IMG/VR virus record: IMGVR_UViG_3300008266_000146
Location: 1 to 52,475 of that record
Direction: 5' to 3' (one strand)
DNA length: 52,475 bases
DNA from: a virus
Taxonomy: Duplodnaviria; Caudoviricetes
The position numbers and the translations under genes are program-made. The notes under the pieces were generated by a model, which was not told the origin of the DNA, ran no database searches, and saw nothing but the letters and a program-made list of their open reading frames with translations. Position 1 is the stretch's first letter, and each line of letters starts with the position of its first letter. Below, piece after piece: positions 1,264 through 20,635 of this stretch.

Positions 1264-1521
1264 ATGACCCGCATGCCGGGCAGTCGGGAATACGCCATTG
1301 CGTGCTGCGTTCACTGCGGGGTGGCGTGGCCGACGACGCACTTCGTCGCTTACGGTCAGCAGATGCCATACTCATGCAGCGGCGGCGTTCGCTACCACGC
1401 CGTGGCACCGGCCTATATCGTCGACATCCTGCCGGGACATCCCACGCTGACGCGGGGTGTCAATGAGCGCTATCACGTGCTCGCCAAGCTCTTCCACGCC
1501 GCAAAGGAGACAACCTCATGA
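1264..1521 (+). CDS. CxxC/LAKLF family small protein, member A
   Basis: CCVHCG near the N-terminus, YIVD, C-terminal RYHVLAKLFH; RBS supplied by the box at 1244. Confidence 0.75.
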   Translation: MTRMPGSREYAIACCVHCGVAWPTTHFVAYGQQMPYSCSGGVRYHAVAPAYIVDILPGHPTLTRGVNERYHVLAKLFHAAKETTS

Positions 1522-1745
1522 CTAAGACCGCGTTCCTCGCCGCGCTCCGCCGGCACCTGATCGACACCTACCAGTGGGCTGCCGACGCGGCGAAACTGGA
1601 CCGCTTCATGGCCAGCGTCGAGGCCACGATCCGTGGGGACGTGAAGACGTGGAACCCCGACGGGGAGGCGTCGACGGCCGCGTGGCGCGAGATCGGCGGC
1701 ACCGGCAAGGTCGCTCTTCGCCGCCTGCGCGAGTTGGCCGAGTAA
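1518..1745 (+). CDS. Hypothetical protein (75 aa)
   Basis: AGGAG RBS, ATGA overlap with the upstream gene, stop inside the box at 1742. Confidence 0.75.
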   Translation: MTKTAFLAALRRHLIDTYQWAADAAKLDRFMASVEATIRGDVKTWNPDGEASTAAWREIGGTGKVALRRLRELAE

Positions 1746-1760
1746 CTTGGGGGAGTAACC

Positions 1761-2024
1761 ATGCGCTACGCACTGGTGTGCTGCCCCGAATGCGGCGATC
1801 TGTGGACAAAAGCGCGCCGTGACCCGCTGTTCACGCTCGGCGAGCGCACGCCTACAGTATGCAACGGCGAGTTCAAAGGTCGGTTCGGACACGAGCCGAC
1901 ACGTGTGGTCGTCGTCGACCTTGAGCCGGACTACATCGTCGACAGCCGTCACAAGCTGAGCAACCGAGAGAGCGACCGCTACCACACGCTCGCCAAGATA
2001 TTCGCCTCTAACTCCAAGGAGTAA
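1761..2024 (+). CDS. CxxC/LAKLF family small protein, member B
   Basis: CCPECG, YIVD, RYHTLAKIF; bounded by boxes at 1742 and 2008. Confidence 0.8.
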   Translation: MRYALVCCPECGDLWTKARRDPLFTLGERTPTVCNGEFKGRFGHEPTRVVVVDLEPDYIVDSRHKLSNRESDRYHTLAKIFASNSKE

Positions 2025-2029
2025 CCACC

Positions 2030-2332
2030 ATGGCCAAGATGACTGTCGCCGACGTTGCCACCGCGCTCCGCGATGCCGACGTGTCCACCCTGACCCCGGC
2101 GACCGCGCCGGACTGGCTCAAGATGATCGACTTCCTCCGCCAGCAGACGCTCGCTGCCATCGACGAGGTGGCCCTGCGCGCTGACGCGCTGGACGCACGT
2201 GAGAAGGCGGTCGCGGAGGCTGAAGCTGTGCTCGCCACCCGCAAGGCTGCCGTCGAGCGCATCATGTCCCTGCCGGGTGCGCACCCCGCCACCCCGCCGT
2301 CCACCAAGCGCTCCATGTGGAGCCTCCGGTAA
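2030..2332 (+). CDS. Hypothetical protein with a predicted coiled coil
   Basis: Bounded by boxes at 2008 and 2329; Ala/Glu/Arg-rich helical segment. Confidence 0.75.
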   Translation: MAKMTVADVATALRDADVSTLTPATAPDWLKMIDFLRQQTLAAIDEVALRADALDAREKAVAEAEAVLATRKAAVERIMSLPGAHPATPPSTKRSMWSLR

Positions 2333-2348
2333 CTCAGGAGAGTAACCC

Positions 2349-2609
2349 ATGTCCATCTACTGCCCTGCCCAAGGCCCGCCGCGCCTCATCCGGCTCATCC
2401 CCGCGCTCTTCCCCGACGGCTCGCTCGCCGTGCTGGACGAGAGGCGCAACTTCCTCATGGTGTCCGCCCCGCTGTTCGAGGGACTGACGCCCATCCAGCA
2501 GGAGCGGTGCCGGCGCACGACGCGCGCTATCACCATGCCGCATGACGTCGAACACCACCAAGACCCCATCCCCTTTGGCCGCAGCGCCGGCCGTAACTCG
2601 CAGGAGTAA
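2349..2609 (+). CDS. Hypothetical protein (86 aa)
   Basis: Bounded by boxes at 2329 and 2593; RBS from the upstream box. Confidence 0.7.
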   Translation: MSIYCPAQGPPRLIRLIPALFPDGSLAVLDERRNFLMVSAPLFEGLTPIQQERCRRTTRAITMPHDVEHHQDPIPFGRSAGRNSQE

Positions 2610-2615
2610 CACCCT

Positions 2616-3716
2616 ATGCCCACCCTTCAGCAGCTTGCCGGCATCATGCCGAACATCCTCGACACCGGCATCAGCGTCGAGTTGATCTCGTCGCCCGGCA
2701 TCGGCAAGTCCGACTTCGTCGAGCAGCTGGTCGCGTCGCGCACCGAGACCACCGGCATCAAGTGGGGCATGTCGCAGGCCTTCCTCGCGACCTACACCCC
2801 GCCGGACCTCATCGGCTACCAGTTCAAGGGTGAGCGCATGTGGCGCTCGCCGCACACTGGCGAGATGGAGCCGGTCGCCGTGACCGATCCGTCCATGCCG
2901 CTGTGGATGATTTCGTCCGAGGGCCGCCCGCTCTACGAGTACGAGCGCGGCATCCTGTTCCTCGACGAGTTCGGGCAGGGTGAGGCTGACGTCAAGCGCG
3001 CGGCGGCGCAATTGCTGCTCAAGCGCGAGATTGGTCCGTGGCGTCTGCCGCCCGGCTGGTCGGTCATGGCCGCGTCCAACCGCGCCAACGACCGCAGCGG
3101 CGTGACCAAGTCGTTCGACTTCGTCATCAACCGGCGCGTCGAGTACCACATCACCCCCGACCTGCTGTCGTGGGACGCATGGGCAATCTCGCGGGGTATC
3201 GACCCGCTGTTCGTGGCCTTCGCCCACCAGCACCCCGAGATTGTCTTCTCCGGCTCCGTGCCGAAGCAGCAGGGTCCGTGGTGCACGCCGCGCTCGCTCG
3301 TCATGGCGCATGACCTGCTCGTGGCGATCTCCGGCGGTGCCGGCCAGCCCATCCGCATGGATGATCTGGGTGCGGAGACCATGCGCGGCACCATTGGCGA
3401 CGCGGCCACGGCGCAGCTCAAGTCGTTCATCGACGTGTCCATGCAGCTGCCCTCGCTGGACGACATCGTCGACGATCCGACGAAGTGCGCGTTGCCGACG
3501 CGTGCGGACGGTCAGATGCTCGTCGTGTTCCAGCTGGCGCACGTTGCGCACAAGGACATCATGCGGCCCGTCGGCACCTACATCAACCGGCTCGGCGCGT
3601 CGTTCGAGACCATGTTCATCAAGCGCCTCATCGGTCGGTCGCCGACGTTCGCCATGGACCCGGTCATCGACAAGATGGTCACCCGCAACGCCCACCTCAT
3701 CCACGCGGTGGCGTGA
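2616..3716 (+). CDS. MoxR-like AAA+ ATPase
   Basis: Walker A SPGIGKS, Walker B ILFLDE, sensor-1 AASN, INRR and TPRS motifs; a vWA partner lies nearby. Confidence 0.85.
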   Translation: MPTLQQLAGIMPNILDTGISVELISSPGIGKSDFVEQLVASRTETTGIKWGMSQAFLATYTPPDLIGYQFKGERMWRSPHTGEMEPVAVTDPSMPLWMISSEGRPLYEYERGILFLDEFGQGEADVKRAAAQLLLKREIGPWRLPPGWSVMAASNRANDRSGVTKSFDFVINRRVEYHITPDLLSWDAWAISRGIDPLFVAFAHQHPEIVFSGSVPKQQGPWCTPRSLVMAHDLLVAISGGAGQPIRMDDLGAETMRGTIGDAATAQLKSFIDVSMQLPSLDDIVDDPTKCALPTRADGQMLVVFQLAHVAHKDIMRPVGTYINRLGASFETMFIKRLIGRSPTFAMDPVIDKMVTRNAHLIHAVA

Positions 3717-3777
3717 CGGTTACTCGCCGGAGTAACGGGGCGCGAATGCCCCACCGCCCCAACAGGAGCACGCACCA
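3717..3777 (+). repeat. 61-bp direct repeat, copy 1 (box + hairpin + RBS leader)
   Basis: Matches 6052-6112 with one mismatch. Confidence 0.9.
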
Positions 3778-3978
3778 ATGCGCACCACCTACACCATCAC
3801 CCTGCATGCCGATCTGGCTGACGACGCCGAGAAGCAGGCAGCGCTCGACCAGTTCATCCGCGACCGCGCCATCGAGACCATTGCTCTCGTCAAGCTGCTG
3901 GGCCTGTCCCGTCCGCCGGCCATCACGGCGACGCGCCACCGCTATGGCGACGGCACGGTGGACATCGACGTCACATGA
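3778..3978 (+). CDS. Hypothetical protein (66 aa)
   Basis: AGGAG RBS 9 nt upstream of the ATG; ATGA overlap with the next gene. Confidence 0.7.
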   Translation: MRTTYTITLHADLADDAEKQAALDQFIRDRAIETIALVKLLGLSRPPAITATRHRYGDGTVDIDVT

Positions 3979-4229
3979 CGCGCGCTATCATCGCCGACCG
4001 GCACTGGGCCTGCTGCCCCGACTGCAACAAGATGTGGCAGTCCAAACATCTGCGCGGCTACGCTCTTGGTTGCCGCACCCGGTTTGTGTGTATTTGCAGC
4101 CCACAGCCGCTCGCCCCCGGCGCCCCCCGCCTGATCGCTGTCGGTGACCTGCCGGAGCACAAGCCCGCCAAATACGTCTACGCCATGGCGAAGCTATTCG
4201 CCAGTAACTTGAAGGAGTTACCGAAATGA
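3975..4229 (+). CDS. CxxC/LAKLF family small protein, member C
   Basis: CCPDCNKMW at the N-terminus; YAMAKLF at the C-terminus. Confidence 0.75.
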   Translation: MTRAIIADRHWACCPDCNKMWQSKHLRGYALGCRTRFVCICSPQPLAPGAPRLIAVGDLPEHKPAKYVYAMAKLFASNLKELPK

Positions 4230-5608
4230 AGCTGCTCGAATTGACCCCCGCGCAGAAGGTGGAGTGGGAAGCCACCCGCACAGCGCTCATGTGGAGCGCC
4301 CCGGCGTTCACCCACCTGCTGTTCACCATCCTCGACTACCGGGCGCGCGACAACTACGCCAACGCGTTCTGGACGGACGAGGTGGAGATCGCCGCGACCG
4401 ACGGCTGGCGTCTGCTTCTCAACCCCACGACGTTCTTGGCGATCCCGCTCAAGGACCGCGTGTTCATCGTGGCGCACGAGATCATGCACTGCATCTGGGC
4501 GCACCCCGCCACCATGAAGCACTGGCAGCAGCGTGGCTATGTGGTCGGCGCAAAGGGCGATCACATCCCCTACCACCACGAAGTGCTCAACATCGCTGCC
4601 GACCTCATCATCAACGACCTGCTGATCGACAGCAAGATCGGCACATTCCCGGCCATCGGCGGCCTGCACGACAAGAACCTCGCCACCGCTGTGGACGCCC
4701 TCAACGAGGTGTACGAGCGCGTCTACAACAAGACGCCCAAGCAGCCGCAGGGCGGCAACGGGCAGGGGCAGGGGCAGGGGCAGGGGCAGGGGCAGGGGCA
4801 GGGGCAGCCCGGTCAGGGTAACTCCCCGAGTAACGGTCAGGGTGCCGCCGGCCAGATGCCGTCCCATGGCGGCAAGAAGGCGTTCGACACCATGATGGAC
4901 CCGGACGGCCATCCCGAGGATAAGCCCGCCGACGCCCATGCCAATGGCACGGCGCAGGGTGACGGTCGGTGGCGTCAGGCCATCGCCGAGGCTGCGGCTC
5001 TGGGCAAGGCGCAGGGGCAGCTGCCGGCCGGCATCGCCCGTGTCTTCGCCGAGCTGACGGAGCCCAAGGTCGACTGGTCCGGTGCCATCCGTGGCGCGGT
5101 CGCCCGCCGTGTCGGCTCGTCGGACAGCTCATGGCGTCGCCCGGACCGCCGCATGATCGTGCGCGACATCTACTCGCCCGGTCGCAGCGGTCACGGTGCC
5201 GGCACCATCGCGCTCGTCGGCGACACGTCCGGGTCCATGACCGACACCGAGATCGGCGTCATCCTGCGCGAGTTGCGGGGCATCTTGGAAGACCTCAACC
5301 CGCAGCGTGTCATCGTCATCTGGTGCGACGCCAAGGTCCATGCGGTCGAGGACGTCTACGACGCCAGCGACATCCCCTCCCTGCGGCCCAAGGGTGGCGG
5401 CGGCACCGACTTCCGTCCGCCGTTCCATTGGCTCGACGACGAGAGCATCACGCCGGACGGTATGATCTACGTGACCGACGGCTATGGCACGTTCCCGTCG
5501 AGCGCGCCCGACTACCCTGTGATCTGGGCCGACATCACCGGCCCCGGTCGCGTCGCCTACCCGTGGGGGGACGTCATTAACATCCCCCGCGACAGCCTCG
5601 CCGAGTAA
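4226..5608 (+). CDS. Metallopeptidase-like (HExxH) + vWA domain protein (DUF2201-like)
   Basis: AHEIMH zincin motif; MIDAS DTSGS, GGGTDF and TDGY; Gly/Gln linker; typical partner of MoxR-type AAA+ ATPases. Confidence 0.85.
   Translation: MKLLELTPAQKVEWEATRTALMWSAPAFTHLLFTILDYRARDNYANAFWTDEVEIAATDGWRLLLNPTTFLAIPLKDRVFIVAHEIMHCIWAHPATMKHWQQRGYVVGAKGDHIPYHHEVLNIAADLIINDLLIDSKIGTFPAIGGLHDKNLATAVDALNEVYERVYNKTPKQPQGGNGQGQGQGQGQGQGQGQPGQGNSPSNGQGAAGQMPSHGGKKAFDTMMDPDGHPEDKPADAHANGTAQGDGRWRQAIAEAAALGKAQGQLPAGIARVFAELTEPKVDWSGAIRGAVARRVGSSDSSWRRPDRRMIVRDIYSPGRSGHGAGTIALVGDTSGSMTDTEIGVILRELRGILEDLNPQRVIVIWCDAKVHAVEDVYDASDIPSLRPKGGGGTDFRPPFHWLDDESITPDGMIYVTDGYGTFPSSAPDYPVIWADITGPGRVAYPWGDVINIPRDSLAE
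4760..4807 (+). repeat. Perfect tandem repeat (GGGCAG)x8 encoding (GQ)8
   Basis: Eight identical hexamers in the linker of the vWA protein. Confidence 0.95.
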
Positions 5609-5673
5609 CTTCGCCGAGTAACCGGGGGCGCGCTATCACGGCGCGCTCCCACCACCCCAACAGGAGAACACCC

Positions 5674-6048
5674 ATGAAATCCTACCGCCGCAATGATCGT
5701 GAAGAGACGCGCGAAATCGAGCCCATTACGCTGGACTTGCCCGCCGCGCTCATCCACAAGCCGCTGCACGTCGTCACCATGGGCGCAAAGGCCACCGCGA
5801 TTGTCTACGAGACGGCCAACCGCGTCTGGAGCAGCGACCGTACCAACTATTTCGACGCTCCCGTGTTTCGTGTGGTGCTCACCGGGTTCAGCGACGCCGC
5901 GCGCAGCCGGCTGGCGTACTACAATGGGCACCGCGACGACGCCCAATGCTTCACCACTCTGCTCGACGTCGAGCTGTTCATTCGCGCGGCTGCCGTGGCG
6001 TGCGCCCCGGTCAAGAAGCGCGTCACGGTCGTCGAGGAAGACGTCTGA
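5674..6048 (+). CDS. Hypothetical protein (124 aa)
   Basis: AGGAG RBS; lies between boxes at 5605 and 6054. Confidence 0.7.
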   Translation: MKSYRRNDREETREIEPITLDLPAALIHKPLHVVTMGAKATAIVYETANRVWSSDRTNYFDAPVFRVVLTGFSDAARSRLAYYNGHRDDAQCFTTLLDVELFIRAAAVACAPVKKRVTVVEEDV

Positions 6049-6051
6049 CGG

Positions 6052-6112
6052 CGGTTACTCGCCGGAGTAACGGGGCGCGAATGCCCCACCACCCCAACAG
6101 GAGCACGCACCA
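6052..6112 (+). repeat. 61-bp direct repeat, copy 2
   Basis: Matches 3717-3777 with one mismatch. Confidence 0.9.
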
Positions 6113-6166
6113 GTGCCCATCAAGCCGCCGCTCGCCAAGCTCTTCCACGCTAACTCGCAGGAGTAA
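6113..6166 (+). CDS. 17-aa micro-ORF MPIKPPLAKLFHANSQE
   Basis: GTG sits at the same offset from AGGAG as the ATG at 3778 in the other repeat copy; encodes the LAKLF tail of the CxxC family; stop inside the box at 6150. Too short for the supplied ORF track. Confidence 0.55.
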   Translation: MPIKPPLAKLFHANSQE

Positions 6167-6171
6167 CCACC

Positions 6172-6402
6172 ATGGCTAGCCACTACTACGCTGAATGCGC
6201 CAGCGGCAAATCGCGCGCCAGCCGCACCGGCACTCTGAAGACCGGCATCCGCGCCGTCGTCGCGTCGTGGCAGGGGGCGTGCCACACCACCCTCTACGAC
6301 AAGGACGGCGTCACTTATGTCCGCGTGCATCTGGCGTTGTGGGGTGGCAAGGGCACGTCCAAGCTGATCTACGACGGCCCCGTCGGGGAGTACGCGCCGT
6401 GA
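6172..6402 (+). CDS. Hypothetical protein (76 aa)
   Basis: RBS from the box at 6150; ends GEYAP. Confidence 0.7.
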   Translation: MASHYYAECASGKSRASRTGTLKTGIRAVVASWQGACHTTLYDKDGVTYVRVHLALWGGKGTSKLIYDGPVGEYAP

Positions 6403-6671
6403 GCAATCCCCGCACCCACAGGCCGGGGCCGGGCTTTGCCGGCGACGCCGTCGAGCATGTGCGGCTCTACCATGGCGTCATGGACCTGCACAGCAAGAAC
6501 ATCCTGCGCACCATATTGCGCGGTGCGCTCGACAGCCACGCCCATATCGTCAAGGGACTGGCCGGCACCGCGACGCAGGCTTGGTTCGAGGACACGTTCA
6601 AGAACGACGTCGCGGCAGTCAACGATGCGATCTCGCTGCTGGACAGTAGCTCAGGGGAGTACGCGCCGTGA
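6399..6671 (+). CDS. Hypothetical protein (MSNPRTH..., 90 aa)
   Basis: GTG start in a GTGA overlap with GGAG RBS; 3' part of ORF 6195..6671; flanked by 18-bp direct repeats; ends GEYAP. Confidence 0.65.
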   Translation: MSNPRTHRPGPGFAGDAVEHVRLYHGVMDLHSKNILRTILRGALDSHAHIVKGLAGTATQAWFEDTFKNDVAAVNDAISLLDSSSGEYAP

Positions 6672-6991
6672 AGTATTTCGTCGCTGGCTGCCCGACATGC
6701 GGGCGGGTGTGGCAGTCCACCCATGCGCCGCTGCAACAGCTTAGCTCTCATTATGGGCTCTGTCGCGGCGGCACTGGCAGCCAAAAATACCCTATGACCG
6801 GCGACGAGATTGGACCTATCGCCGAGCATGTCACCTCGATGTATATCGTGTACATGCACGACCAGCCGCTAGCCGTCCGCAGCCATCAGTATAGGGAGGT
6901 AAACGGGCCGATCACCACCCTTTTACCCGCTGACGAACATGCTAGACTGTGGGCGCTCGCGAAGCTCTTCCACAGTAACTCCACGGAGTAA
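6668..6991 (+). CDS. CxxC/LAKLF family small protein, member E
   Basis: GCPTCGRVW, YIVY, LWALAKLFH; stop inside the box at 6975. Confidence 0.75.
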   Translation: MKYFVAGCPTCGRVWQSTHAPLQQLSSHYGLCRGGTGSQKYPMTGDEIGPIAEHVTSMYIVYMHDQPLAVRSHQYREVNGPITTLLPADEHARLWALAKLFHSNSTE

Positions 6992-6996
6992 CCTCC

Positions 6997-7575
6997 ATGA
7001 CCGCTGTCCAGATCGTAGGGTTGTGTGGCGTAGCGCGTGCCGGCAAGACCTCGACGGCCAACTTCATGAAGGTGGACAAGGGCTTCACCAACATCAGGTT
7101 CACCGACAGCATGGCCAAGATATGTCTCGCTGCCGGCCTGACACCCGACCACGTCGACGGACGCCTCAAGGACACCCCGGAGCCGTTACTCGGGGGAGCA
7201 ACACCCCGGCAGTTCATGGTTGGCATCGGGCGCACGCTGCGCGCGTTCAACCCCGAGTTCTTCCCCGAACACTGGCGCAGGCAGGTGCGCGCTATCACGC
7301 CGACGCTGCACCCCATGCTCCGCAAGATCGTCGCTGACGACGTCCGCACGCCCGCTGAAGCCGCTGCGATCAAGGCCGAGGACGGCGTCCTCATCCGCAT
7401 CATCCCCACCTATCCGGCCTATGCCAACGCCACCAGAGGCATCGACTATGACCCTGCGACTGAAGACCAGCAATTCGACGTCGACCACACCGTCCGCAAC
7501 GCCGGAAGCGCGTTCGAGCTTGCCGGACAAGTCTACGCCATCCTCGCCGCGACATGGCCGCGTCCTCTCGGGTGA
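6997..7575 (+). CDS. Deoxynucleoside monophosphate kinase
   Basis: N-terminal P-loop IVGLCGVARAGKTS; TPRQFM and DDVR..EA.AI...G.LIRI motifs typical of phage dNMP kinases. Confidence 0.8.
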   Translation: MTAVQIVGLCGVARAGKTSTANFMKVDKGFTNIRFTDSMAKICLAAGLTPDHVDGRLKDTPEPLLGGATPRQFMVGIGRTLRAFNPEFFPEHWRRQVRAITPTLHPMLRKIVADDVRTPAEAAAIKAEDGVLIRIIPTYPAYANATRGIDYDPATEDQQFDVDHTVRNAGSAFELAGQVYAILAATWPRPLG

Positions 7576-7576
7576 C

Positions 7577-7900
7577 GTGCTCGCCATCGGGTACTGCCCG
7601 GCGTGCGACAAAGCCGTGTACCGCACGTTCAAGGCCAAGACCATTCACAAGCGCCAGTGGGGCATCGGCAGCGCTGCCTATCAGTGCGTCGGCGATGTTG
7701 TGCAGTCGCATGGGTTTCCTTACAGGGTGCGTACATGGGCGCATCCCGGCGAGTTCGTGACGTTGATCCAGATCAAACCCGTCGCCAGACAGCTGGGTCG
7801 GCGCTCCGCGCCTACGCTCCCTGTAAACCCTAACATCCTGTCTGACAAAGCGCGTGCGCTCATGGCGATCCTCGCGTCCAGCCGTCACTCGGTGGAGTAA
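7577..7900 (+). CDS. CxxC family small protein, divergent member F
   Basis: GTG just after the kinase stop; YCPACD; C-terminal amphipathic ARALMAILA instead of LAKLF; stop inside the box at 7884. Confidence 0.6.
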   Translation: MLAIGYCPACDKAVYRTFKAKTIHKRQWGIGSAAYQCVGDVVQSHGFPYRVRTWAHPGEFVTLIQIKPVARQLGRRSAPTLPVNPNILSDKARALMAILASSRHSVE

Positions 7901-7903
7901 CCC

Positions 7904-8365
7904 ATGCACGGGTTCCAGATCGAAGAGTTCCGTCGCTCCATGCTGGAAGCCACGTGGCTTCTCGTCATCATGCTGACCACGGCGTGCAGCATGCTCATCG
8001 TCGGCATGCACCACGTGTCTGAGCCATCCTCGACGGTCCTCATCGTTGCGTCTGGCGTTGTCACCGTCACCGCCATGTTCGCCATGCGTGCGGCGGCGAA
8101 CGACGCTTGGCGGACGTACTGCTGGGACAACTACGACAGTGCGCTCGTCAGCCTGTACGCAGTGCTCGCTGAGGATGACGGCTCGCAGACCTACTTCGTC
8201 GCGCAGGAGCGGCACTCCGTCAAGAGCATCATGCACGCCTACAGCCCGGAGGACATCACGAAAGGCGTGAGATGGGCGCTCGCGCAGCGCAACCTCACCC
8301 ATGGCTCGACGCTCGTGCGCTACTGCACCGACGACGAAGTCGCATTCTTGGAGAACGACAGATGA
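7904..8365 (+). CDS. Hypothetical membrane protein (two hydrophobic segments)
   Basis: WLLVIMLTTACSMLIVGM and VLIVASGVVTVTAMFAM; RBS from the box at 7884. Confidence 0.7.
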   Translation: MHGFQIEEFRRSMLEATWLLVIMLTTACSMLIVGMHHVSEPSSTVLIVASGVVTVTAMFAMRAAANDAWRTYCWDNYDSALVSLYAVLAEDDGSQTYFVAQERHSVKSIMHAYSPEDITKGVRWALAQRNLTHGSTLVRYCTDDEVAFLENDR

Positions 8366-8586
8366 CCAGACCCCGCACCTACGACAGCCGCGAAGCATTC
8401 ATGTCCGCCCTCTCGGAGGCCATCGTTGCCGACGGCAGGACGCACGTCCAGCTCGCGCTCGCCACCAGCGTCTCGCATACAACGATCAGCCGCATTGTCA
8501 GCGGCGACACCCGCTGGCCGCGCTACACCACCATCTTTCCGCTCATCCAGACGCTGGGCCTCAAACTGTCGCTGGAACGTCGATGA
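8362..8586 (+). CDS. XRE/Cro-like helix-turn-helix protein
   Basis: THVQLALATSVSHTTISRIVSG.T..PR..TI..L..TLG matches the XRE HTH pattern; ATGA overlap and GGAG RBS. Confidence 0.8.
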   Translation: MTRPRTYDSREAFMSALSEAIVADGRTHVQLALATSVSHTTISRIVSGDTRWPRYTTIFPLIQTLGLKLSLERR

Positions 8587-8606
8587 CGGTTACTCAGGGA
8601 GTTACC

Positions 8607-9658: not shown

Positions 9659-11536
9659 ATGAAGCGAATTTTTCTCGATTTCGAGAGCTACTACGACGAC
9701 CTGTACTCGCTTCGCAAGATGACGCCGGCAGAGTACCTGCTGGATGCCCGGTTCGAGATGATCGGCTGCGCGGTCGCTGTCGGCGATGGGCCGTCCGACT
9801 TCATGGACGCTGCGCACTTCGACTGGTTTCTGCAACAGCACGACCCGCTCGACTGCATGGTGATCTCCCACAACGCGCTGTTCGACGCCTGTCTGCTGAC
9901 GTGGCACTACAACTGGATGCCGCGCCTGTTCGTCGACACGCTGGCCATGTCCCGTGCGCTGCTGCAACACAAGCTGCGCTCGCTATCGCTGGACAGTGTC
10001 GCCCGGCACTTGGGGCTCGGCGTCAAGGGCACGCAGCTGATCCAGATGAAGGGCATGACCACCAACATGATCCGCTCGCGCGGGCTGTGGCCGGGCATGG
10101 CAGAGTATGCGCGCAACGACAACGACCTGTGCCGGGGCATCTTCAAGACGCTGCTGAAGGACTTCCCGGCGAAGGAGATCGTGCTGAATGACATGGTGAT
10201 CCGCTGCGCGGCGGTGCCCATGCTGATGTTCAACCGCGAAATCCTGCACGAGCATCTTGCCGACGTACTGCTGAAGAAGCAACAGCTGCTGGCGCAGTGC
10301 GGCGTCACTGACGTCGCCGACCTGATGTCCAACGACAAGTTCGCCGAGGTGCTGTCGTCGCTGGGCGTGGAGCCACCCCGCAAGGTGTCGCAGCGCACCG
10401 GCAAGGAGACGTGGGCGTTCTCCAAGACCGACGTCGCGTTCATGGAGCTGGAAGAGCACGACGACCCCATGGTGCAGGCTGCTGTCGCCGCTCGCATGGG
10501 GTTCAAGTCGACCATCGAGCAGACCCGCACCGAGCGGTTCATCGCCATCTCCCAGCTTACTTGGCCGAGTAACCAAGGCCACGACATCCCGTGGGCGCCG
10601 ATCCCACTGCGCTTCTCGGGCGCGCACACGCATCGCCTGTCGGGCGACTGGAAGCTGAACATGCAGAACCTTGGGCGCGGCAGCCGCCTCAGGTACGCGC
10701 TTGAAGCTCCGCCCGGCTACAAGGTCATGACGGTGGACGCCTCGCAGATCGAGGCGCGCGTCAATGCCACCCTGTGGGGGCAGGAGGACCTGCGGTTGAT
10801 GTTCGAGCGGGGCGAGGACGTCTACTCGTCGTTCGCGGGCAACGTCTTCGGCTACCCGGTGAACAAGAAGACGCACCCCAAGGAGCGGTTCATCGGCAAG
10901 ACGTCGGTGCTCGGGCTGGGGTTCGGCGTCGGGCACGTCAAGTTCTTCAACACGGTCCGGCTGAAGTCGAAGCAGGACTTGGGCGAAGAGATGATCCTGC
11001 CGGAGGGCGAGGCGCAGCGCATCGTCAACCTGTTCCGGGGCACCTATAACCGCATCTCGGCGGGGTGGGACATCCTCAACGGGCTGATCCCCGCCATGGC
11101 CGCCGGCACCGCCACCCAGACAATCGGCCCGCTCAAGTTCGGGGCGAAGGCGATCCGCCTGCCGTCCGGGCTCGACCTCAAGTACCACAACCTGCGTTAC
11201 GAGACGCACGAGGTGTTCGGCAGTGGCTGGGTCTACGACTACGCCGGCAAGCCCAAGCGCCTCTATGGGGCTGCGCTGGACGAGAATGTCGTGCAGGCCA
11301 TCGCCCGCTGCGTCACCATGGACGCCGCTGTCCGCATGCGCCCGTGGATGGACGCCAACGGGTGTTTCTTCGTGATGCAGGTGCACGACGAGCTGGTCTA
11401 CGCCGTGCCAGACCACCTTGTCGACGACGCCGGGCAACTCATGCTGGACGAGATGCGCCGCCGCCCGACATACATGCCCATGCTGCCGCTCGACGCCGAG
11501 GTTGGTGTTGGGTACAGCTACGGCGACGCCAAGTAA
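9659..11536 (+). CDS. Family A DNA polymerase with 3'-5' exonuclease
   Basis: Exo motifs LDFES and HNALFD; motif A DASQIEAR, motif B RFIGKTSVLGLGFG, motif C QVHDEL. Confidence 0.92.
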   Translation: MKRIFLDFESYYDDLYSLRKMTPAEYLLDARFEMIGCAVAVGDGPSDFMDAAHFDWFLQQHDPLDCMVISHNALFDACLLTWHYNWMPRLFVDTLAMSRALLQHKLRSLSLDSVARHLGLGVKGTQLIQMKGMTTNMIRSRGLWPGMAEYARNDNDLCRGIFKTLLKDFPAKEIVLNDMVIRCAAVPMLMFNREILHEHLADVLLKKQQLLAQCGVTDVADLMSNDKFAEVLSSLGVEPPRKVSQRTGKETWAFSKTDVAFMELEEHDDPMVQAAVAARMGFKSTIEQTRTERFIAISQLTWPSNQGHDIPWAPIPLRFSGAHTHRLSGDWKLNMQNLGRGSRLRYALEAPPGYKVMTVDASQIEARVNATLWGQEDLRLMFERGEDVYSSFAGNVFGYPVNKKTHPKERFIGKTSVLGLGFGVGHVKFFNTVRLKSKQDLGEEMILPEGEAQRIVNLFRGTYNRISAGWDILNGLIPAMAAGTATQTIGPLKFGAKAIRLPSGLDLKYHNLRYETHEVFGSGWVYDYAGKPKRLYGAALDENVVQAIARCVTMDAAVRMRPWMDANGCFFVMQVHDELVYAVPDHLVDDAGQLMLDEMRRRPTYMPMLPLDAEVGVGYSYGDAK

Positions 11537-11549
11537 CTCGGGGGAGTTA

Positions 11550-11942: not shown

Positions 11943-11961
11943 CATAGGAATAGAAACCCTA

Positions 11962-11990
11962 TTGACAGGGGGTTCTACCTTGTGTATACT
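11962..11990 (+). promoter_or_regulatory. Near-consensus sigma70 promoter
   Basis: TTGACA-N17-TATACT; an imperfect inverted repeat (TAGAAACCCT/AGGGGGTTCTA) straddles the -35. Confidence 0.75.
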
Positions 11991-12013
11991 TTGTCTGATC
12001 GTTGGAGCACCCC

Positions 12014-12319
12014 ATGCAACATCATCTGACCCGCGACCATTATTGGGCCGCACTAAAGCTGCCGCCCGTCATGCTCGACACCCTGATGGCCCTCATCGAG
12101 AACGAGATCATCACGGTCGACTACCTGACGAACGTGACCCTGCACGGGCACTACGCCATCCACCGCCTGCGGCGCGTCCTCGCTGACGAGTGTCCGGCGA
12201 CCGGCATCACCAGCGCTCGCGCGGTGGGGTACTGGATGACGCCCGAGCAGAAGGAAGAGCTGGCGGCCTACGTCGCTGCCAAGCTGGCTGCCAATCGCGC
12301 GCCGTTACTCGCCGAGTAA
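12014..12319 (+). CDS. Winged-helix DNA-binding protein (OmpR/PhoB C-terminal-like)
   Basis: HYAIHRLRRVL...ITSARAVGYWM resembles the recognition helix and wing (HI.RLR.KL...I.TVRG.GY) of the OmpR/PhoB DNA-binding domain; GGAG RBS. Confidence 0.65.
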   Translation: MQHHLTRDHYWAALKLPPVMLDTLMALIENEIITVDYLTNVTLHGHYAIHRLRRVLADECPATGITSARAVGYWMTPEQKEELAAYVAAKLAANRAPLLAE

Positions 12320-12346: not shown

Positions 12347-12733
12347 ATGGGCCAGACGCCTGCGCCTCCCGCCAATCTGTACGCCATGGCTACCAATGCT
12401 TCGCACAGGAACGCGCTATCACCCGCGTCCCAGTCCATCCGGCAGACGTCGCTGGGCTCGAACACCTACAACGGTATCGGGCTCGGCGTCGTCAAGACGG
12501 TGCCGTGTATCGCCGACAGCGCTTGGCGCACTGAAGCTATCAACACGCGTTGTCACAGTTTTGACCACAGCGGGCTTGCCATCTTTACTATCTGGCTGGA
12601 AGGCTGGCAGCACATCCACGTCGCTATCTGTCGCCGCGCGGGTGACGGGCTTGTCGTGGTCGAAGACCCGGTCGCGTCGTTCCCATCCGACAACCTCATC
12701 GCAAAGATCGCTCTCATGGCAGCAGTGAAATGA
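12347..12733 (+). CDS. Hypothetical protein ending FPSDNLIAKIALM
   Basis: GGAG RBS; ATGA overlap with the next gene; C-terminus resembles that of 13296..13634. Confidence 0.6.
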   Translation: MGQTPAPPANLYAMATNASHRNALSPASQSIRQTSLGSNTYNGIGLGVVKTVPCIADSAWRTEAINTRCHSFDHSGLAIFTIWLEGWQHIHVAICRRAGDGLVVVEDPVASFPSDNLIAKIALMAAVK

Positions 12734-13294
12734 CCGGACCCGCCACAACCCAATACCGCAAGGTCGAAAAGCCGTTCTCTTGGTCCTACTCTCGGATCAA
12801 GAATTTCGAGACGTGCCCCAAGCGCTACTATGAGGTGGACGTCGCCAAGAATGTGCAGGAGGAAGACAGCGACCAGCTCGCCTTCGGCAACAAGCTGCAC
12901 TCGGCGTTCGCGGCCTATCTGTCCAAGGGCACCCCGTTGCCGCCGGACCTGATCACCTATCAGGAGGACGTTGACCGCGTTGCCGGCATGAACGGCACGA
13001 TGCTCGTCGAGCAGAAGCTGGCGATCACCAAGGACTTCGGGCCGTGCGATTACTTCGCGCGTAACGCTTGGTTCCGGGCGCAGGGGGACGTGCTGCGCAT
13101 CGCCGGCAGGGTGGCCTATTGCGGCGACTGGAAGACCGGCAAGGTGAAGGAGGACAGCGTCCAGCTGGCACTCGTCGCCGCGTGTGTCTTCGCCCACCAC
13201 CCCGCCGTGCTGGCCGTGAAGACCGAGTTCATCTGGATGGCTCTGCCGGCGCTACTGCCCGGTCCGCTCGTGCCCGCACTACGGAGGAGAGTGA
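12730..13294 (+). pseudogene. Cas4/AddB-like PD-(D/E)xK exonuclease with a frame break near 13240
   Basis: WSYS...FETCP, GNKLH, VEQKL, D..., DWKTGK and QL motifs in the frame of 12730; the expected C-terminal three-Cys cluster LCRRYCPVRSCPHYGGE* (13241-13294) is in the +1 frame. Confidence 0.7.
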
Positions 13295-13295
13295 T

Positions 13296-13634
13296 ATGTC
13301 GACGTACATGGACGCACTGCGGCGCAGCAACACTGTGCCGGAGCGGTTCTCGCTTAGAGACGTCATGCGCCGCACCGGCGACGAGGTGCTGCTCCGGTCG
13401 CTCTACAACGGGATGCCCCTGCCGGTCGGTGTCCTGCTCCGCGAGATTGTGGACAGCCCTATGGATCAGTCGCTCATATATACTGTTGTGACAGGCCCAC
13501 GATTCAGCGTCGTCCAACTGAAGGCGGGCCTTCAGGAAGTCACCCACGGAAGTCCTAACTTCTGGCCGTTACCGGACAGCGTGCTGGCGAAGATGAAGCT
13601 GCTATCTGCCGCTGCTGGTAACTCGGGGGAGTAA
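13296..13634 (+). CDS. Hypothetical protein (MSTYMDAL..., 112 aa)
   Basis: Strong GGAGGAG RBS at 13283; stop inside the box at 13618. Confidence 0.7.
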   Translation: MSTYMDALRRSNTVPERFSLRDVMRRTGDEVLLRSLYNGMPLPVGVLLREIVDSPMDQSLIYTVVTGPRFSVVQLKAGLQEVTHGSPNFWPLPDSVLAKMKLLSAAAGNSGE

Positions 13635-15964: not shown

Positions 15965-17272
15965 ATGAGCAAAGCGCTCGTCAACGTCGATCCGTTCGCA
16001 GCCATGGCTGCACAGTTCGCCCTGCCCGCCGTCTTCGCCAACCAGCCCGTGCAGGATGAGCTGGGTGCCGGTATCGAAGGCTCGTTCGGCATCGTCGGCT
16101 ACAAGGGCAAGGTCTGGCGCATCCGCTATCGAGGCAACGAGGAGGTCGTCACCCGTATCGACGACGGCACCCCGGCAGCCGCGCTTGAGCTGGTTATCGT
16201 CAAGGCCAGCCCCCACAAGGCCAAGACCTATTACGCCGGCTCGTTCGTCGAGGGCACGCAGGAGCGCCCCGACTGCTGGTCGAACAACGGCGTGACGCCG
16301 GACCCCGGCGTGACCAACCCGGTTCACACCGCCTGCGCCACGTGTCCGATGAACGTGTTCGGCTCCAAGACGTCCGACAACGGCTCCAAGGCCAAGGCGT
16401 GTCAGGACCACAAGCGCGTCGCCGTCGTGCCGCTCGACGACATGATGAACGAGAGCGGCGGTGGGCCGATGCTGCTGCGCATCCCCCCGGCGTCGCTTCA
16501 GGCCGCCAAGGAGTACGGCGACAACCTCACGCGGGCGAACATCCCGATCTATGCCGTCGGCACGCGCGTGCTGTTCGACATGAACGTGGCGCACCCGCAG
16601 TTCATCTTCAAGCCGATCCGCGTGCTGACGGACGAGGAAGCCGAGTACATCAACGCCCTGCGCACCGACCCCCGCGTCGACCGCATCCTCAACGAGGGGA
16701 CGGACTTCGCGGCGGCTGCGGCGTTGGAGGCTCCCCCGCTGCCCGACGAGTTCTCTGCGCTCGCCGATCAGGCCGCTGCCAAGGCTACGGCCCCCAAGGC
16801 TGCCGCCCCCAAGCCGGCGTCGGCCACGGCCGCCGTGCAGGCCGCCGCTGCCAAGGCTGCCGCTCCCGCCGCCAAGGCCCCTGTAGCGGCTCCCAAGGCC
16901 GTTGCGCCGCCTCCGAAGGCTCCGGTGGCCCCCAAGGCTGCCGCGCCCGCCCCTGCGGCTCCCAAGGCCGCTGCCGCGCCGGTTACTCCGGCGAGTAACG
17001 CTACCCCGGCCGTCAAGCCGTCTGCGGCACAGGTGCTGGCCAATGCCCGCGCCAAGCAGGCCGCTGCTGCCGCAGCCGCAGCCGCCGCTGCCGCAGCCGC
17101 CGCAGCCGCTGAAGCCGCCGCTGCCGAGGCGGAGGGTGGCGAGGTGATCGAGGGTGAGTACGCCGAAGAGGGCGAGTACACCGAAGAGGGCGCTGAGGGC
17201 GCTGAGGGCGCTGAGGGCGAAGCGACCGTCGACGATCTCGACGCCGAGCTGAAGGCGCTGATGGGCGATTGA
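15965..17272 (+). CDS. Putative ssDNA-binding/annealing protein with an Ala/Pro/Lys linker and acidic tail
   Basis: Cys cluster (PDCWS, CATCP, AC); LLRIPPASL; acidic C-terminus DDLDAELKALMGD; position next to the primase. Confidence 0.6.
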   Translation: MSKALVNVDPFAAMAAQFALPAVFANQPVQDELGAGIEGSFGIVGYKGKVWRIRYRGNEEVVTRIDDGTPAAALELVIVKASPHKAKTYYAGSFVEGTQERPDCWSNNGVTPDPGVTNPVHTACATCPMNVFGSKTSDNGSKAKACQDHKRVAVVPLDDMMNESGGGPMLLRIPPASLQAAKEYGDNLTRANIPIYAVGTRVLFDMNVAHPQFIFKPIRVLTDEEAEYINALRTDPRVDRILNEGTDFAAAAALEAPPLPDEFSALADQAAAKATAPKAAAPKPASATAAVQAAAAKAAAPAAKAPVAAPKAVAPPPKAPVAPKAAAPAPAAPKAAAAPVTPASNATPAVKPSAAQVLANARAKQAAAAAAAAAAAAAAAAAEAAAAEAEGGEVIEGEYAEEGEYTEEGAEGAEGAEGEATVDDLDAELKALMGD

Positions 17273-17287: not shown

Positions 17288-17309
17288 GGGCCGGGGGAAA
17301 CTCCGGCCC
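17288..17309 (+). terminator. GAAA-loop hairpin between the SSB-like gene and primase
   Basis: GGGCCGGGG-GAAA-CTCCGGCCC; weak U-tract. Confidence 0.5.
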
Positions 17310-17339
17310 TAACTACCTCTTGGGACATGGGCGGCGGCA

Positions 17340-20300
17340 GTGAACATCAACGAGGCGAAAAGGTATCTGGCACGTGTTCTGCCATGGCCAACCGACGGGG
17401 GTGACTGGTTCGTCAACCTCCACACCCTGCGCGACGTTGGGCGTCGCGACAAGAAGGGCAAGCCGATCCTGATGCCGGGCGGGCGTCCGTTCAAGGACGT
17501 CGGGCGCGCGGCGAACGCGATTGAGTGGTGGCTGACCAAGAGCCAGCACAACACGGACATCTACGCCTGCATGTCGGCACAGGCCACGGCTGTGACCCGG
17601 TACGACGACAACGGCAAGGCGTTCCTGACGGCGGTGCGCAACACCCAGAACACGCTGTGGTGCAAGTCGCTCTACATCGACGTCGACGTGAAGGCGCCGC
17701 CCAAGGGCTACGCAACCCGCGAGGAAGCGCTTGAGGCGATCAACGCGTTCATCGAGGCTCTTGGCATGCCGGAGCCCAGCGTCATCGTCGACAGCGGCAA
17801 CGGCTTCCATGTCTACTGGACCGTCGTGGACCCGGTCACTCCGGCGCAATGGTGGCCCTATGCCTACGCGCTCGCCGAGGCTACCAAGGCGTTCGGGCTG
17901 CGCTGCGATACCCAGTGCACCGTGGACGTGGTGCGCATCCTGCGCGTGCCGGGCACCTACAACTACAAGTCCGATCCGCCGACCACGGTCTCGATCCACC
18001 ACTGGCGGGACGGCGACTATTTCTGGAAGCATCTGACGGGGCCGTTGGAGCCCTACGTCGGCAGGGTGGTGATCGAGACCGATATGTCGCAGGAGTTCGC
18101 GGCGCTCGGGCGCATGTCCGGGCCGATGGTGGCTAACGAGCTGGGATCGGGCATCGAGCCGAACAAGGCACCAGAGGTGGACCTTGCGAAGGTCATCAAT
18201 GATTGCGCGTTTTTCCGTGACACTGTGGTGGACGGCGGGGCGAAGAACGACAACCCCCTCTGGGTGCTGACGCTGCTGGCGGCGACGTTCTGCGGCGAGG
18301 ACGGGGCGGAGCTGGCGCAGGCGATGTCCGCCGGCCATGAGACCTATGACCCCGACACCGTGGCGACGCGCTACGCCGAGAAGCTGGCCGAGAAGACCCG
18401 CCGCAATCTGGGTTGGCCGTCGTGCAAGGCGATCTCCGGTGCCGGTGCGCCGCAGTGCTCCACGTGCCCCCATCTGGCTGCCGGCAAGAGCCCGATGCGG
18501 TTCGGCATGCCGGACGATGTTACTCTCGCGAGTAACACCCCGCCACCCCGCCCGGTGCCCGCCGCCGTGCAGGCGCTGTCGCAGCAGACCGGCATCTACC
18601 AGATCGCCATGAACACTCTGCCGGACGACTACGTCCGTCGGCCGAACGGCATCATCGCTCAGGTGGTCACTCCGTCCGATGGTGGTGCCCAGTTCGAGCA
18701 GGCTGTGTGCCCCTACCCGCTGTTTGATGGCTGGCTTCAGCGTGACCCGTGGACGATCAACTTCTCGACCGTCGTGTCGGGTGGTAAGCAGGAGCGCGTC
18801 GCAGTCCGCTACGAGGACATGAGCGGGTCCGAGACGTTCCGCAAGACAGTGCTGCGGTTCGGGTTGGCGTTCGACAGCGAGAAGACGTTTGAAAGGCTGA
18901 AGGTGTTTCTCATGGCATGGATTAACAAGCTGCGCGACGGCCCCCTCGCCATTGGGTCCGGCCATACGTTTGGCTGGTCGACGAACGGCACCAAAGAGGA
19001 CGGTTTCATCTACGACGGGCATCTGTATGGGATGGACCCGGAACCCCGCCCCATGGCCATTGCCGACCCGGTGATCGCCGAACAGTACCGCCCCCGTGGC
19101 GACATAGGTCCGTGGGTTGACGCGCTCGACATCGTGCTGGGGCGCGAGCGCTACGACCTTGAGGCTATCGTGGCGTCGGCGTTCGCCGCACCGCTGGTGA
19201 AGTTCACCGGGCACTCGGGCCTCATCATGGCGGCGTACTCGGAAGCCTCGGGCGTCGGCAAGACCACGGCGATGAAGATCGCGCAGGCTGTGTGGGGCGA
19301 CCCCAAGCGCGCCATGCAGCAGCTCGACGACACCCAAAACTCGGTGTTCAAGAAGATCGGTCAGATCAAGAACCTGCCGATGTACTGGGACGAGATCAAG
19401 GGCGAAGAGAACCTGAAAAACTACGTGCGCATGATCTTCTCCATGGCCTCGGGCAAGGAGAAGTCCCGCATGCGCGCCGATGCCACCATGAACCTGTCCG
19501 GCACGTGGAAGACGCTTCTCGTTTCGGCGAACAATGAGAGCCTGATCGACTACATCATCCGGCAGACCAAGCAGACGAGCGCCGGCCTCATGCGCGTGTT
19601 CGAGTACCCCGTGGTGTCCCGGTCGGACGGCAGCATGAAGACATCGTCCGTGCAGGCCTCTCTGGGGCTGCTGGACGAGAATTACGGGCAGGCCGGGCTC
19701 ATCTACGCCAAGTGGCTCGGAGCCAACTGGGAGCGCGTTGCCAAGGACGTGCTGGCCATGTCGTCGGCATTCGAGAAGCGGGCCAAGGCCACGACCGACG
19801 AGCGGTTCTGGATCGCCCTCATCGCCGTGCTTGTCCTCGGGGCAACCTACGCCAACAAGCTTGGGCTGGCGCAGTTCAACACGGCGAAGCTGCGGGAGTT
19901 TCTGTTCGAGCAGCTGGAAGCGATGCGGGGTGTGGGGGACGCCCAGCCGGTGGATATGTCCAAGGGCATCAACGTCGTCAACGTCCTGTCCCGGTTCCTC
20001 GCGCAGAAGCGGGCGCGCAACACCCTCATCACCAACCGCATGCACGTGTCTCGCGGCAAGCCGCCTGCCGGGATCAACACCCTCAACGAGGCGACCAAGC
20101 TGGACGAAATTCAGGTCCATATGTCGGTCGACGACAAGCTGCTGCGGATCGTCTCGTCGGCGTTCTCGGACTGGTGTCAGGAGCACGGCATCTCGCGCCA
20201 CCAGTTCACCAAGGCACTGCACGACCAGTTCAACGTGCACGAGACGGTGGGCATCATCGGGGCCGGCACGCCCTACAAGTCGATGGCGCAGTACGTCATC

Positions 20301-20348
20301 CAGCTCGATCTTGCCGACCTCAAGATACAGCCGTTCATGGATACCTGA
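17340..20348 (+). CDS. Primase (AEP/RepB-like) fused to a DUF927-type P-loop helicase
   Basis: YIDVD, SGNGFHVYW, RILRVPGTYNYK; central Cys cluster; GVGKTT and YWDE in the C-terminal part. Confidence 0.85.
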   Translation: MNINEAKRYLARVLPWPTDGGDWFVNLHTLRDVGRRDKKGKPILMPGGRPFKDVGRAANAIEWWLTKSQHNTDIYACMSAQATAVTRYDDNGKAFLTAVRNTQNTLWCKSLYIDVDVKAPPKGYATREEALEAINAFIEALGMPEPSVIVDSGNGFHVYWTVVDPVTPAQWWPYAYALAEATKAFGLRCDTQCTVDVVRILRVPGTYNYKSDPPTTVSIHHWRDGDYFWKHLTGPLEPYVGRVVIETDMSQEFAALGRMSGPMVANELGSGIEPNKAPEVDLAKVINDCAFFRDTVVDGGAKNDNPLWVLTLLAATFCGEDGAELAQAMSAGHETYDPDTVATRYAEKLAEKTRRNLGWPSCKAISGAGAPQCSTCPHLAAGKSPMRFGMPDDVTLASNTPPPRPVPAAVQALSQQTGIYQIAMNTLPDDYVRRPNGIIAQVVTPSDGGAQFEQAVCPYPLFDGWLQRDPWTINFSTVVSGGKQERVAVRYEDMSGSETFRKTVLRFGLAFDSEKTFERLKVFLMAWINKLRDGPLAIGSGHTFGWSTNGTKEDGFIYDGHLYGMDPEPRPMAIADPVIAEQYRPRGDIGPWVDALDIVLGRERYDLEAIVASAFAAPLVKFTGHSGLIMAAYSEASGVGKTTAMKIAQAVWGDPKRAMQQLDDTQNSVFKKIGQIKNLPMYWDEIKGEENLKNYVRMIFSMASGKEKSRMRADATMNLSGTWKTLLVSANNESLIDYIIRQTKQTSAGLMRVFEYPVVSRSDGSMKTSSVQASLGLLDENYGQAGLIYAKWLGANWERVAKDVLAMSSAFEKRAKATTDERFWIALIAVLVLGATYANKLGLAQFNTAKLREFLFEQLEAMRGVGDAQPVDMSKGINVVNVLSRFLAQKRARNTLITNRMHVSRGKPPAGINTLNEATKLDEIQVHMSVDDKLLRIVSSAFSDWCQEHGISRHQFTKALHDQFNVHETVGIIGAGTPYKSMAQYVIQLDLADLKIQPFMDT

Positions 20349-20368
20349 TTACTCGGGGGAGTAACTTC

Positions 20369-20635
20369 ATGCGCTATATCGTCTGCGCCACCTGCGGGTC
20401 GTCTAGAGCGCTCCCGGTGTCACCGGCACCGGCAAGCACGCGAGAGGACGTCATATGCAGCGTCGTTGGGGCCGGCACCCATGTCGGGACGTGCGCGCAT
20501 TGCACGTCTGGCTTCGACGCGACGGTCGGCAGGAAATACGTCGTGGAGAGCGACACCCTCGACCACCACAAGCTCCATACCCTAGCGAAGCTGTTTGACT
20601 GCACCACAGGAGACACCAAGCATGGCCGCCCCTAG
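20369..20635 (+). CDS. CxxC/LAKLF family small protein, member H
   Basis: MRYIVCATCGS, CAHC, KYVVE, LHTLAKLFD; RBS from the box at 20348. Confidence 0.75.
   Translation: MRYIVCATCGSSRALPVSPAPASTREDVICSVVGAGTHVGTCAHCTSGFDATVGRKYVVESDTLDHHKLHTLAKLFDCTTGDTKHGRP

Follow-up and report, generated by a model that had tools for sequence, protein, structure and literature searches.

The stretch of DNA analysed here (the window) is the linear IMG/VR virus record IMGVR_UViG_3300008266_000146 (Duplodnaviria, Caudoviricetes), which has 52,475 bases and is estimated to be 85% complete. Bases 1-21,143 form a module of + strand genes, and dispersed over its gene junctions are small genes for proteins with a cysteine knuckle near the N-terminus and the motif LAKLF near the C-terminus. 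They lie next to copies of a short palindrome, GTWACTC-N4-GAGTWAC, called the box below. The family is restricted to the immediate lineage of this phage and comprises four firm members (M1-M4), two probable members (M5 and M6), one doubtful member (M7) and one deletion remnant (Table 1).

An initial annotation of the window had described about seven such proteins. All seven open reading frames (ORFs) and the strings quoted for them are present on the + strand, and the boundaries of M5, M6 and M7 are identical in public gene calls. The proposed number is firm for M1-M4 and probable for M5 and M6, whereas M7 can only be listed as doubtful, and the remnant of 17 codons had been overlooked. Six of the seven starts have a GGAG-type site upstream or overlap the preceding stop codon; the GTG start of M7 lies one base past the upstream stop.

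Table 1. Positions of family members, boxes and other repeats in the window (aa, amino acids; nt, nucleotides)
Feature	Position	Strand	Length	Remarks
M1	1264-1521	+	85 aa	Firm member; CCVHCG ... YIVD ... HVLAKLFH; box 1244-1261 ends 3 nt ahead of ATG; stop overlaps ATG of following gene
M2	1761-2024	+	87 aa	Firm member; upstream box 1742-1759; box 2008-2025 codes for final SNSKE-stop
M3	3975-4229	+	84 aa	Firm member; between small gene 3778-3978 and the vWA/metallopeptidase gene, ATGA overlaps at both ends; 3' end contains box 4204-4221
M4	6668-6991	+	107 aa	Firm member; GTG start overlapping upstream stop; SNSTE-stop encoded by box 6975-6992
M5	11550-11942	+	130 aa	Probable member; family domain is residues 1-97, followed by a 39-residue extension; ORF terminates in box 11926-11943
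M6	20369-20635	+	88 aa	Probable member; MRYIVCATCG ... YVVE ... HTLAKLFD; box 20348-20365 ends 4 nt ahead of ATG, none downstream
M7	7577-7900	+	107 aa	Doubtful member; GTG start; box 7884-7901 at end
Remnant	6113-6166	+	17 codons	Ends PLAKLFHANSQE-stop within box 6150-6167
Examples of boxes	715-732, 1244-1261, 16982-16999, 18519-18536, 25713-25730, 27438-27455, 47782-47799			
71-nt repeat	3717-3787, 6052-6122		71 nt	Second copy 94% identical to the first
Family 3' end with box, at remnant	6129-6176			85% identical to that of M2
GCGCTATCA	948, 963, 1467, 2524, 3982, 5630, 7289, 9536, 12413	+		Nine copies
GGGGAGTACGCGCCGTGA	6384-6402, 6654-6672		18 nt	Ends of genes 6172-6402 and 6399-6671
GGGCAG repeats	4760-4807			Perfect repeats in the vWA/metallopeptidase gene

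Homology between the members was examined against all 1034 ORFs of the six-frame translation of the window. In phmmer searches M1-M4 are interlinked with best E-values of 6.5e-8 to 5.9e-3; the pairs score 6.5e-8 (M1-M2), 1e-5 to 4.8e-4 (M2-M3), 1.3e-4 (M3-M4), about 5e-3 (M2-M4) and about 1e-2 (M1-M4). M5, M6 and M7 gave no matches in this set as single queries, and they stay non-significant against a profile of M1-M4, with or without the outside homologues described below. When the search is limited to the 34 annotated genes of the + strand, M4 and M5 find each other reciprocally (E 0.002-0.004), M2 and M6 do so at about 0.07, and an iterated profile that includes M5 matches M6 over its full length (E 0.002). 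M7 scores E 0.046 in this smaller set and 0.0057 once M6 has been added (over residues 4-44), in both cases through about 40 N-terminal residues alone. Comparison with hhalign aligned 78 columns of M5 (P 3.3e-4), a helix of 14 columns in M6 (P 3.2e-4) and 33 N-terminal columns of M7 (P 3.5e-3), P-values that are generous because the candidates had been chosen by eye for these motifs.

The motifs themselves are also distinctive. The six-frame translation has eight instances of the pattern A[KR][LI]F, and the seven on the + strand belong to M1-M6 and the remnant. A pattern composed post hoc, CxxC...C...H...[AM][KI][LI][FL], selects six of the 1034 ORFs, which are exactly M1-M6, and none in 200 shuffles. 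Mutual homology, whose lack in profile comparisons had been named beforehand as a ground for giving up the family, was found, and M1-M6 hold as a family. We consider it very probable that this family is real and protein-coding.

Searching of protein databases with a hidden Markov model (HMM), as the initial annotation had suggested, gave four homologues beyond the window and no known family. When the profile of M1-M4 was scored against 1.84 billion representative proteins, nine were found at E <= 1e-3: the window's own four, one unrelated protein and four true full-length homologues (P0010-P0013, 81-116 aa, E 3.4e-6 to 9.2e-4). The homologues keep the plan of the family, including WALAKLF or HALAILF, and one has a tail ending in NSQE. 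Three of them are found on one short contig each and P0012 on 12 contigs, the longest of which has 35.9 kb. The unrelated protein, P0009 (877 aa, E 2.5e-6), matched through repeated LLWALAKLV words alone and was dropped; it consists of at least 10 tandem repeats of about 42 residues with LLWALAKLVESGLL, which was treated as convergence and not as homology. No additional homologues were found in a word-based search of 5.8 billion clusters, and word-based searches with M6 and M7 returned only themselves. A search for related loci seeded with P0012 gave nothing, and one seeded with P0010 gave only a terminase through the chance word EERANLWA, which was rejected. The phage genome measures about 59 kb (59,043-base contig on record), so that about 6.5 kb lies outside the window and may hold further members.

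The plan that the initial annotation had outlined is confirmed. An N-terminal strand leads into CPxCG, after which come a third Cys and either His or Cys; a Y-[IV]-V strand then precedes the C-terminal helix with LAKLF. The conserved positions include CPxCG-xx-W and the amphipathic helix (x-L-A-K-L-F). In all 11 sequences (seven from the window and four from outside) CxxC falls within residues 5-15. The third Cys is 12-27 residues past it and the His or Cys 6-22 residues further on, a spacing of the presumed second ligand pair that is atypical for a zinc ribbon. The helix motif lies 10-16 residues from the C-terminus, except in M5 where the distance is 44. M7 agrees with the plan in its CPAC knuckle, third Cys and His, and has ALMAILA as its C-terminal helix. 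The middles fail to align, as had been judged by eye, with MAFFT identities to M1 of 19-33% and lengths of 84-130 aa.

Hypervariability had been claimed for the family, and it exists between the paralogues but not in the population, in which the same loci are letter-identical across samples. Four further public runs (X7, X8, X9 and X11) gave contigs with zero differing letters over M1 and M2 (900-2655), M4 (6282-7331), M7 (7277-8603) and M5 (10340-12065).

The codons of LAKLF vary between members (CTC/CTA/ATG, then GCC/GCG for Ala, CTC/CTA/CTG/ATA for Leu or Ile and TTC/TTT for Phe), and the motif is retained in M1, M5 and M6 although no box follows it there. Synonymous variation together with retention in the absence of a box indicates that the constraint acts at the protein level. 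By contrast, the tail behind LAKLF is the box read in frame, giving S-N-S-x-E-stop in M2 and M4, A-N-S-Q-E-stop in the remnant and S-N-L-K-E in M3. The G+C content is highest at the third codon position and lowest at the second (GC3 > GC1 > GC2) in every member. More A/T-ending codons than in other genes had been reported, and GC3 is indeed 0.66-0.79 in the members against 0.81-0.92 in most neighbours, with overlap from the small genes g12347 (0.74) and g13637 (0.68).

The box is present in 16 exact copies in the whole window, where 0 are expected, and in 35-36 copies when one or two mismatches are allowed. Seventeen boxes lie at gene junctions on the + strand, where they supply TAA as the stop of the gene upstream and, 0-6 nt ahead of the following start (23 nt for gene 15965), a GGAG ribosome-binding site. 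Ten of these 17 touch a member or the remnant, and M2 and M5 have a box on both sides. The earlier statement that every member abuts a box is correct (7/7, and the remnant as well), yet 15 of the 26 other + strand genes do so too, and the box is therefore a general junction element. Further boxes, mostly perfect GTTACTC...GAGTAAC palindromes, are found inside long genes such as the primase gene and an ORF of 2383 aa. In M5 the codons past AKLF (about 11823-11840, GTC AAC TAT GTC GAG CCG, encoding VNYVE) resemble a decayed box, and the extension of this protein apparently arose through box decay with loss of the stop codon.

The remnant, translated V-P-I-K-P-P-L-A-K-L-F-H-A-N-S-Q-E, joins two repeated segments. 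The 71-nt repeat at 3717-3787 contains a box, a GC-rich hairpin, a ribosome-binding site and the first codons of gene 3778, and its second copy runs straight into a family 3' end with its box. The remnant is best read as what is left of a duplicated unit, consisting of a 3778-like gene, a member and a box, after an internal deletion. At the DNA level, four 3' ends are 69-85% identical over 48 nt. Members have been both gained and lost, as the remnant and the decayed box of M5 are evidence of turnover. In the 71-nt repeat the box is perfect and the hairpin behind it, GGGGCGCGAATGCCCC, has a folding energy of -29.8 kcal/mol over 80 nt (z -1.8); this hairpin may be a terminator or a processing site ahead of a restart.

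Two other repeats occur in the same region. GCGCTATCA (0.41 copies expected) is confined to the + strand and to the first 12.5 kb, with a tandem pair before gene 990 and others before gene 5674 and the polymerase gene. Copies also lie within genes, M1 and M3 among them, and the repeat is a possible promoter or regulator site. Genes 6172-6402 and 6399-6671 both end with GEYAP-stop on GGGGAGTACGCGCCGTGA, and the GTG start of the next gene overlaps the stop. GGGGAGTACGCGCCGTGA is a second kind of repeated junction.

The G+C content of the window is 61-71%. The DNA polymerase shares 47.6% identity with the enzyme of Rhizobium phages in the RHph_TM3_14A/TM27 group and about 32% with that of Pseudomonas phage KPP25/phiR18, and a phage collection searched at the DNA level with window 1-8000 had no similar record. 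The + strand module encodes an ATPase (phrog_1297; the AAA+ protein), a protein of 460 aa with DUF2201_N peptidase and VWA domains (the vWA protein), a deoxynucleoside monophosphate kinase, a repressor-like helix-turn-helix protein, a DNA polymerase, an exonuclease, a VRR-NUC-like endonuclease, an SNF2 helicase and a primase-helicase of 1002 aa. Many small ORFs of no known family are located between these genes, and Rfam gave no matches to the whole window. The GGGCAG repeats encode a (GQ)n linker that joins the metallopeptidase and VWA domains of the vWA protein. In the exonuclease-like ORF 12730-13491 the match to a PHROG family is limited to residues 16-170 and the translated tail is unprotein-like. 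Contigs of runs X7, X8 and X9 have 131 additional letters inside this ORF, between 13238 and 13239, and together these features indicate that the window record probably has a deletion or an assembly gap at this point.

Related loci were gathered through the ATPase (46-58% identity) and the polymerase (38-54%), resulting in 63 loci of 872 kb with some contigs in both sets. No family member was found in them by HMM, phmmer or motif. The syntenic loci examined (sets of six and four) retain the ATPase, the 3778-like gene, the vWA protein, the polymerase, the exonuclease, SNF2 and the primase, whereas their small-gene slots are occupied by unrelated small ORFs. In the examined relatives the 3778-like gene directly precedes the vWA gene with nothing between them, the exception being locus L037, and M3 is therefore an insertion. 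L037 has an unrelated ORF of 113 aa (6432-6773) in the slot of M3, with overlapping start and stop, and the junction of the 3778-like gene and the vWA gene seems to be an insertion hot spot. An ORF in locus L010 (1255-1539, MIDICTTCG ... NSQE) was considered as a distant member and rejected, as it had no HMM match and no LAKLF.

M4 was modelled with AlphaFold2 from an alignment of eight rows. The model is compact with four strands (residues 3-7, 14-18, 28-32 and 56-64) and a helix, a mean predicted local distance difference test score (pLDDT) of 78.1 and a predicted template modelling score (pTM) of 0.71; loop 37-50 is of low confidence. Strand 3-7 precedes CxxC, and the LAKLF segment is part of an 18-residue helix (88-105) with pLDDT 84-95 (blocks of 88, 95 and 84). 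The face of this helix is broadly hydrophobic (L, W/H, L, A, L, F) with one invariant Lys. The pTM and pLDDT values suggest that the helix packs on the sheet as an element of the scaffold and is not a free docking peptide. A motif binding the beta clamp (consensus QL[SD]LF, with Gln at position 1 and in a disordered terminal context) does not fit: [LMR]-A-K-[LI]-F has no Gln and lies in a confidently predicted helix. The predicted homodimer of M4 scored 0.00 against a mark of 0.42, which is no evidence either way.

Structure comparison had also been suggested from the start, and no Foldseek match of the M4 model was better than E 0.57 (in BFVD; 1.3 in the PDB). With VIA-align the highest Z was 3.9 (N-terminal region of PriA), and the matches with Z 2.0-3.2 over 40-48 residues were mostly zinc-ribbon modules (bL33, the aRF1 C-domain, MCM N-terminal domains and the zinc module of SIRT6); all of these values fall under the tool's own meaningful level. 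The best look-alike of M4 in the ESM Atlas scored 0.86, under the level of a lead. The modelled fold would most simply be a zinc ribbon with one long extra strand and a C-terminal amphipathic helix. For the seven members Pfam gave no family at E <= 1 except one chance-level row (DUF7836, E 0.19), the best E in PHROGs was 0.0061, covering the knuckle only, NCBIfam had nothing under E 0.078 and the best PDB chain sequence had E 0.47. Full-text literature searching gave nothing on this family among the matches listed.

The reading that we favour, tentatively and at slightly less than an even chance, is that of a lineage-specific accessory family of zinc-ribbon-like proteins that spread as cassettes with the box and whose members bind host macromolecules. 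The ancestral unit would be a small gene with its last codons running into a box. Copies of gene plus box would have entered junctions of the + strand module and then diverged, and one of them would have decayed. The conserved positions would constitute the scaffold, with a presumed C3H/C4 zinc site and the helix packed on the sheet, while the loops joining strand 3, strand 4 and the helix, which differ in length, sequence and charge, would provide each paralogue with its own binding surface. Each paralogue, as a small stoichiometric binder, might then have its own host macromolecule as target, or less likely a phage one, and the family might serve host takeover or counter-defence alongside the replication genes. 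A constant scaffold with variable loops is what points to binding, host proteins being the probable partners; the binder function as such is a possibility that we hold loosely. The initial annotation had proposed adaptors or effectors, and the variable slots in a conserved replication module are consistent with an accessory or effector role, whereas the part concerning a docking helix is unsupported.

Several observations weigh against the favoured reading. The identity of the family genes between samples gives no sign of ongoing diversifying selection, and the low GC3 could equally reflect weak expression. M7 is non-significant among the six-frame ORFs, and AlphaFold on its single sequence gave a poor model (pLDDT 56). 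For M4 the modelling alignment comprises eight rows only and the packing of the helix is deduced from pTM and pLDDT rather than from coordinates, while zinc binding is presumed from the arrangement of Cys and His residues in the sequence.

Of the other explanations, the one that survives best, although unlikely, is a role in nucleic-acid binding: the members would be zinc ribbons acting on the boxes, either as palindromes in DNA or as sites in mRNA, and would thereby adjust transcription, RNA processing or the coupling of translation. This phage has an expanded set of boxes, compared with 0-3 per locus in the relatives, as well as an expanded family, more than half of the junction boxes touch a member or the remnant, and M3 and M7 are basic (isoelectric points 9.5 and 10.2). 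However, four of the seven members are near neutral (7.0-7.7, in a range of 7.0-10.2), the conserved residues are hydrophobic or metal ligands that form no conserved basic surface, and boxes are also present in relatives that lack the family. The RNA hairpins of the boxes are weak (z -1.6 to +0.8), and a protein-binding palindrome therefore seems as likely as an RNA structure.

It is distinctly unlikely that the members are adaptors in which a constant LAKLF helix docks on a common partner, either the AAA+ and vWA-metallopeptidase pair or a host protease, while variable bodies recruit targets. In its favour, no segment is better conserved than the helix, the ATGA overlap couples M3 translationally to the vWA gene and the vWA protein does combine a peptidase domain with VWA. 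However, loci with homologues of AAA+ (37-58% identity) and vWA (about 42%) lack members (0 of 8 loci in one set and 0 of 63), and the pair persists in the examined syntenic relatives, which means that the pair does not need the family. In addition, M3 is an insertion in an otherwise conserved junction, the remaining members are located 2-16 kb from the pair and the helix is modelled inside a compact domain. Docking of LAKLF on the pair, as initially suggested, thus found no support. A related and even less probable idea sees the family as the phage equivalent of the multigene host-range families of eukaryotic viruses: LAKLF would plug into one shared machine, a host AAA+ protease or the AAA+ and vWA-metallopeptidase pair of the phage, and the loops of each member would capture another host protein, of defence or housekeeping, for removal.

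Selfish cassettes of gene and box, spreading through box recombination with products that serve their own spread or nothing, are likewise improbable. Such cassettes would be in line with the boxes on both sides of M2 and M5, with the fusion of two repeated segments in the remnant and with the variability of the slots in relatives. On the other hand, the low identities to M1 speak against recent spread, searches of Pfam, PHROGs and NCBIfam showed no nuclease or recombinase motif in the members, and the retained scaffold residues imply purifying selection on the protein. The remaining explanation, a repeat of box and flank at the DNA level that is merely read in frame, would account for the box-encoded SNSxE-stop tail and the similarity of the four 3' ends but is largely refuted, and has hardly any probability left, because the LAKLF codons vary synonymously and the motif persists where no box follows, N-terminal and central motifs are common to members far from boxes, every member has a coding GC3 signature and homologues exist outside.

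For a phage of about 59 kb to carry six or seven paralogues of a single small protein is unusual, and implies that something has kept divergent copies in the lineage. The fold itself is common. The family is nearly absent from the 1.84 billion representatives and occupies slots where phages usually keep genes for host interaction; with no described relatives, this rarity and these variable slots make it a compact and testable set of candidates for new activities in host takeover or counter-defence. The remnant and the box-encoded tails illustrate how genes can be gained and lost in a phage operon via short junction repeats. None of the libraries searched describes the family, and small accessory proteins of the zinc-ribbon type in plastic phage regions are a familiar kind; it is unusual in how many paralogues one small genome has and in its spread together with the box.

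The ankyrin/PRANC proteins of poxviruses, with their F-box-like C-terminus, are multigene families, and they offer an analogy in that one genome has many divergent paralogues with the C-terminus best conserved. Fold, size and host domain differ, and there is no evidence here of a helix that docks on a host ligase or protease. Among zinc-ribbon modules, bL33, the insert of the aRF1 C-domain and the N-terminal part of MCM resemble the family in the N-terminal strand, the CPxCG knuckle, the three-stranded sheet and what is presumed to be a second ligand pair. The family differs in that its second knuckle is C...H/C with 6-22 residues between and not CxxC, and in the added long strand and 18-residue C-terminal helix; the similarity does not exceed Z 3.9 in structure or E 0.47 to the sequence of a solved chain. 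The Lar restriction-alleviation proteins are small zinc-ribbon accessory proteins of phages, like the family in having fewer than 130 aa, a CPxCG near the N-terminus and a location among early or accessory genes. None of the seven members has a Pfam match to Lar, and a LAKLF helix is not known to be a feature of Lar. In hyperplastic regions of T4-type phages, small ORFs are flanked by PeSL (promoter-stem-loop) cassettes. The box differs from these cassettes because it supplies a stop codon and a ribosome-binding site and not a demonstrated promoter, and the ORFs here are paralogous and not unrelated to each other. The likeness to PeSL lies in small novel ORFs that occupy variable slots and are bounded by a short repeat able to mediate shuffling and, as in the remnant, deletion, and a repeated element of this kind borders all the members and the remnant.

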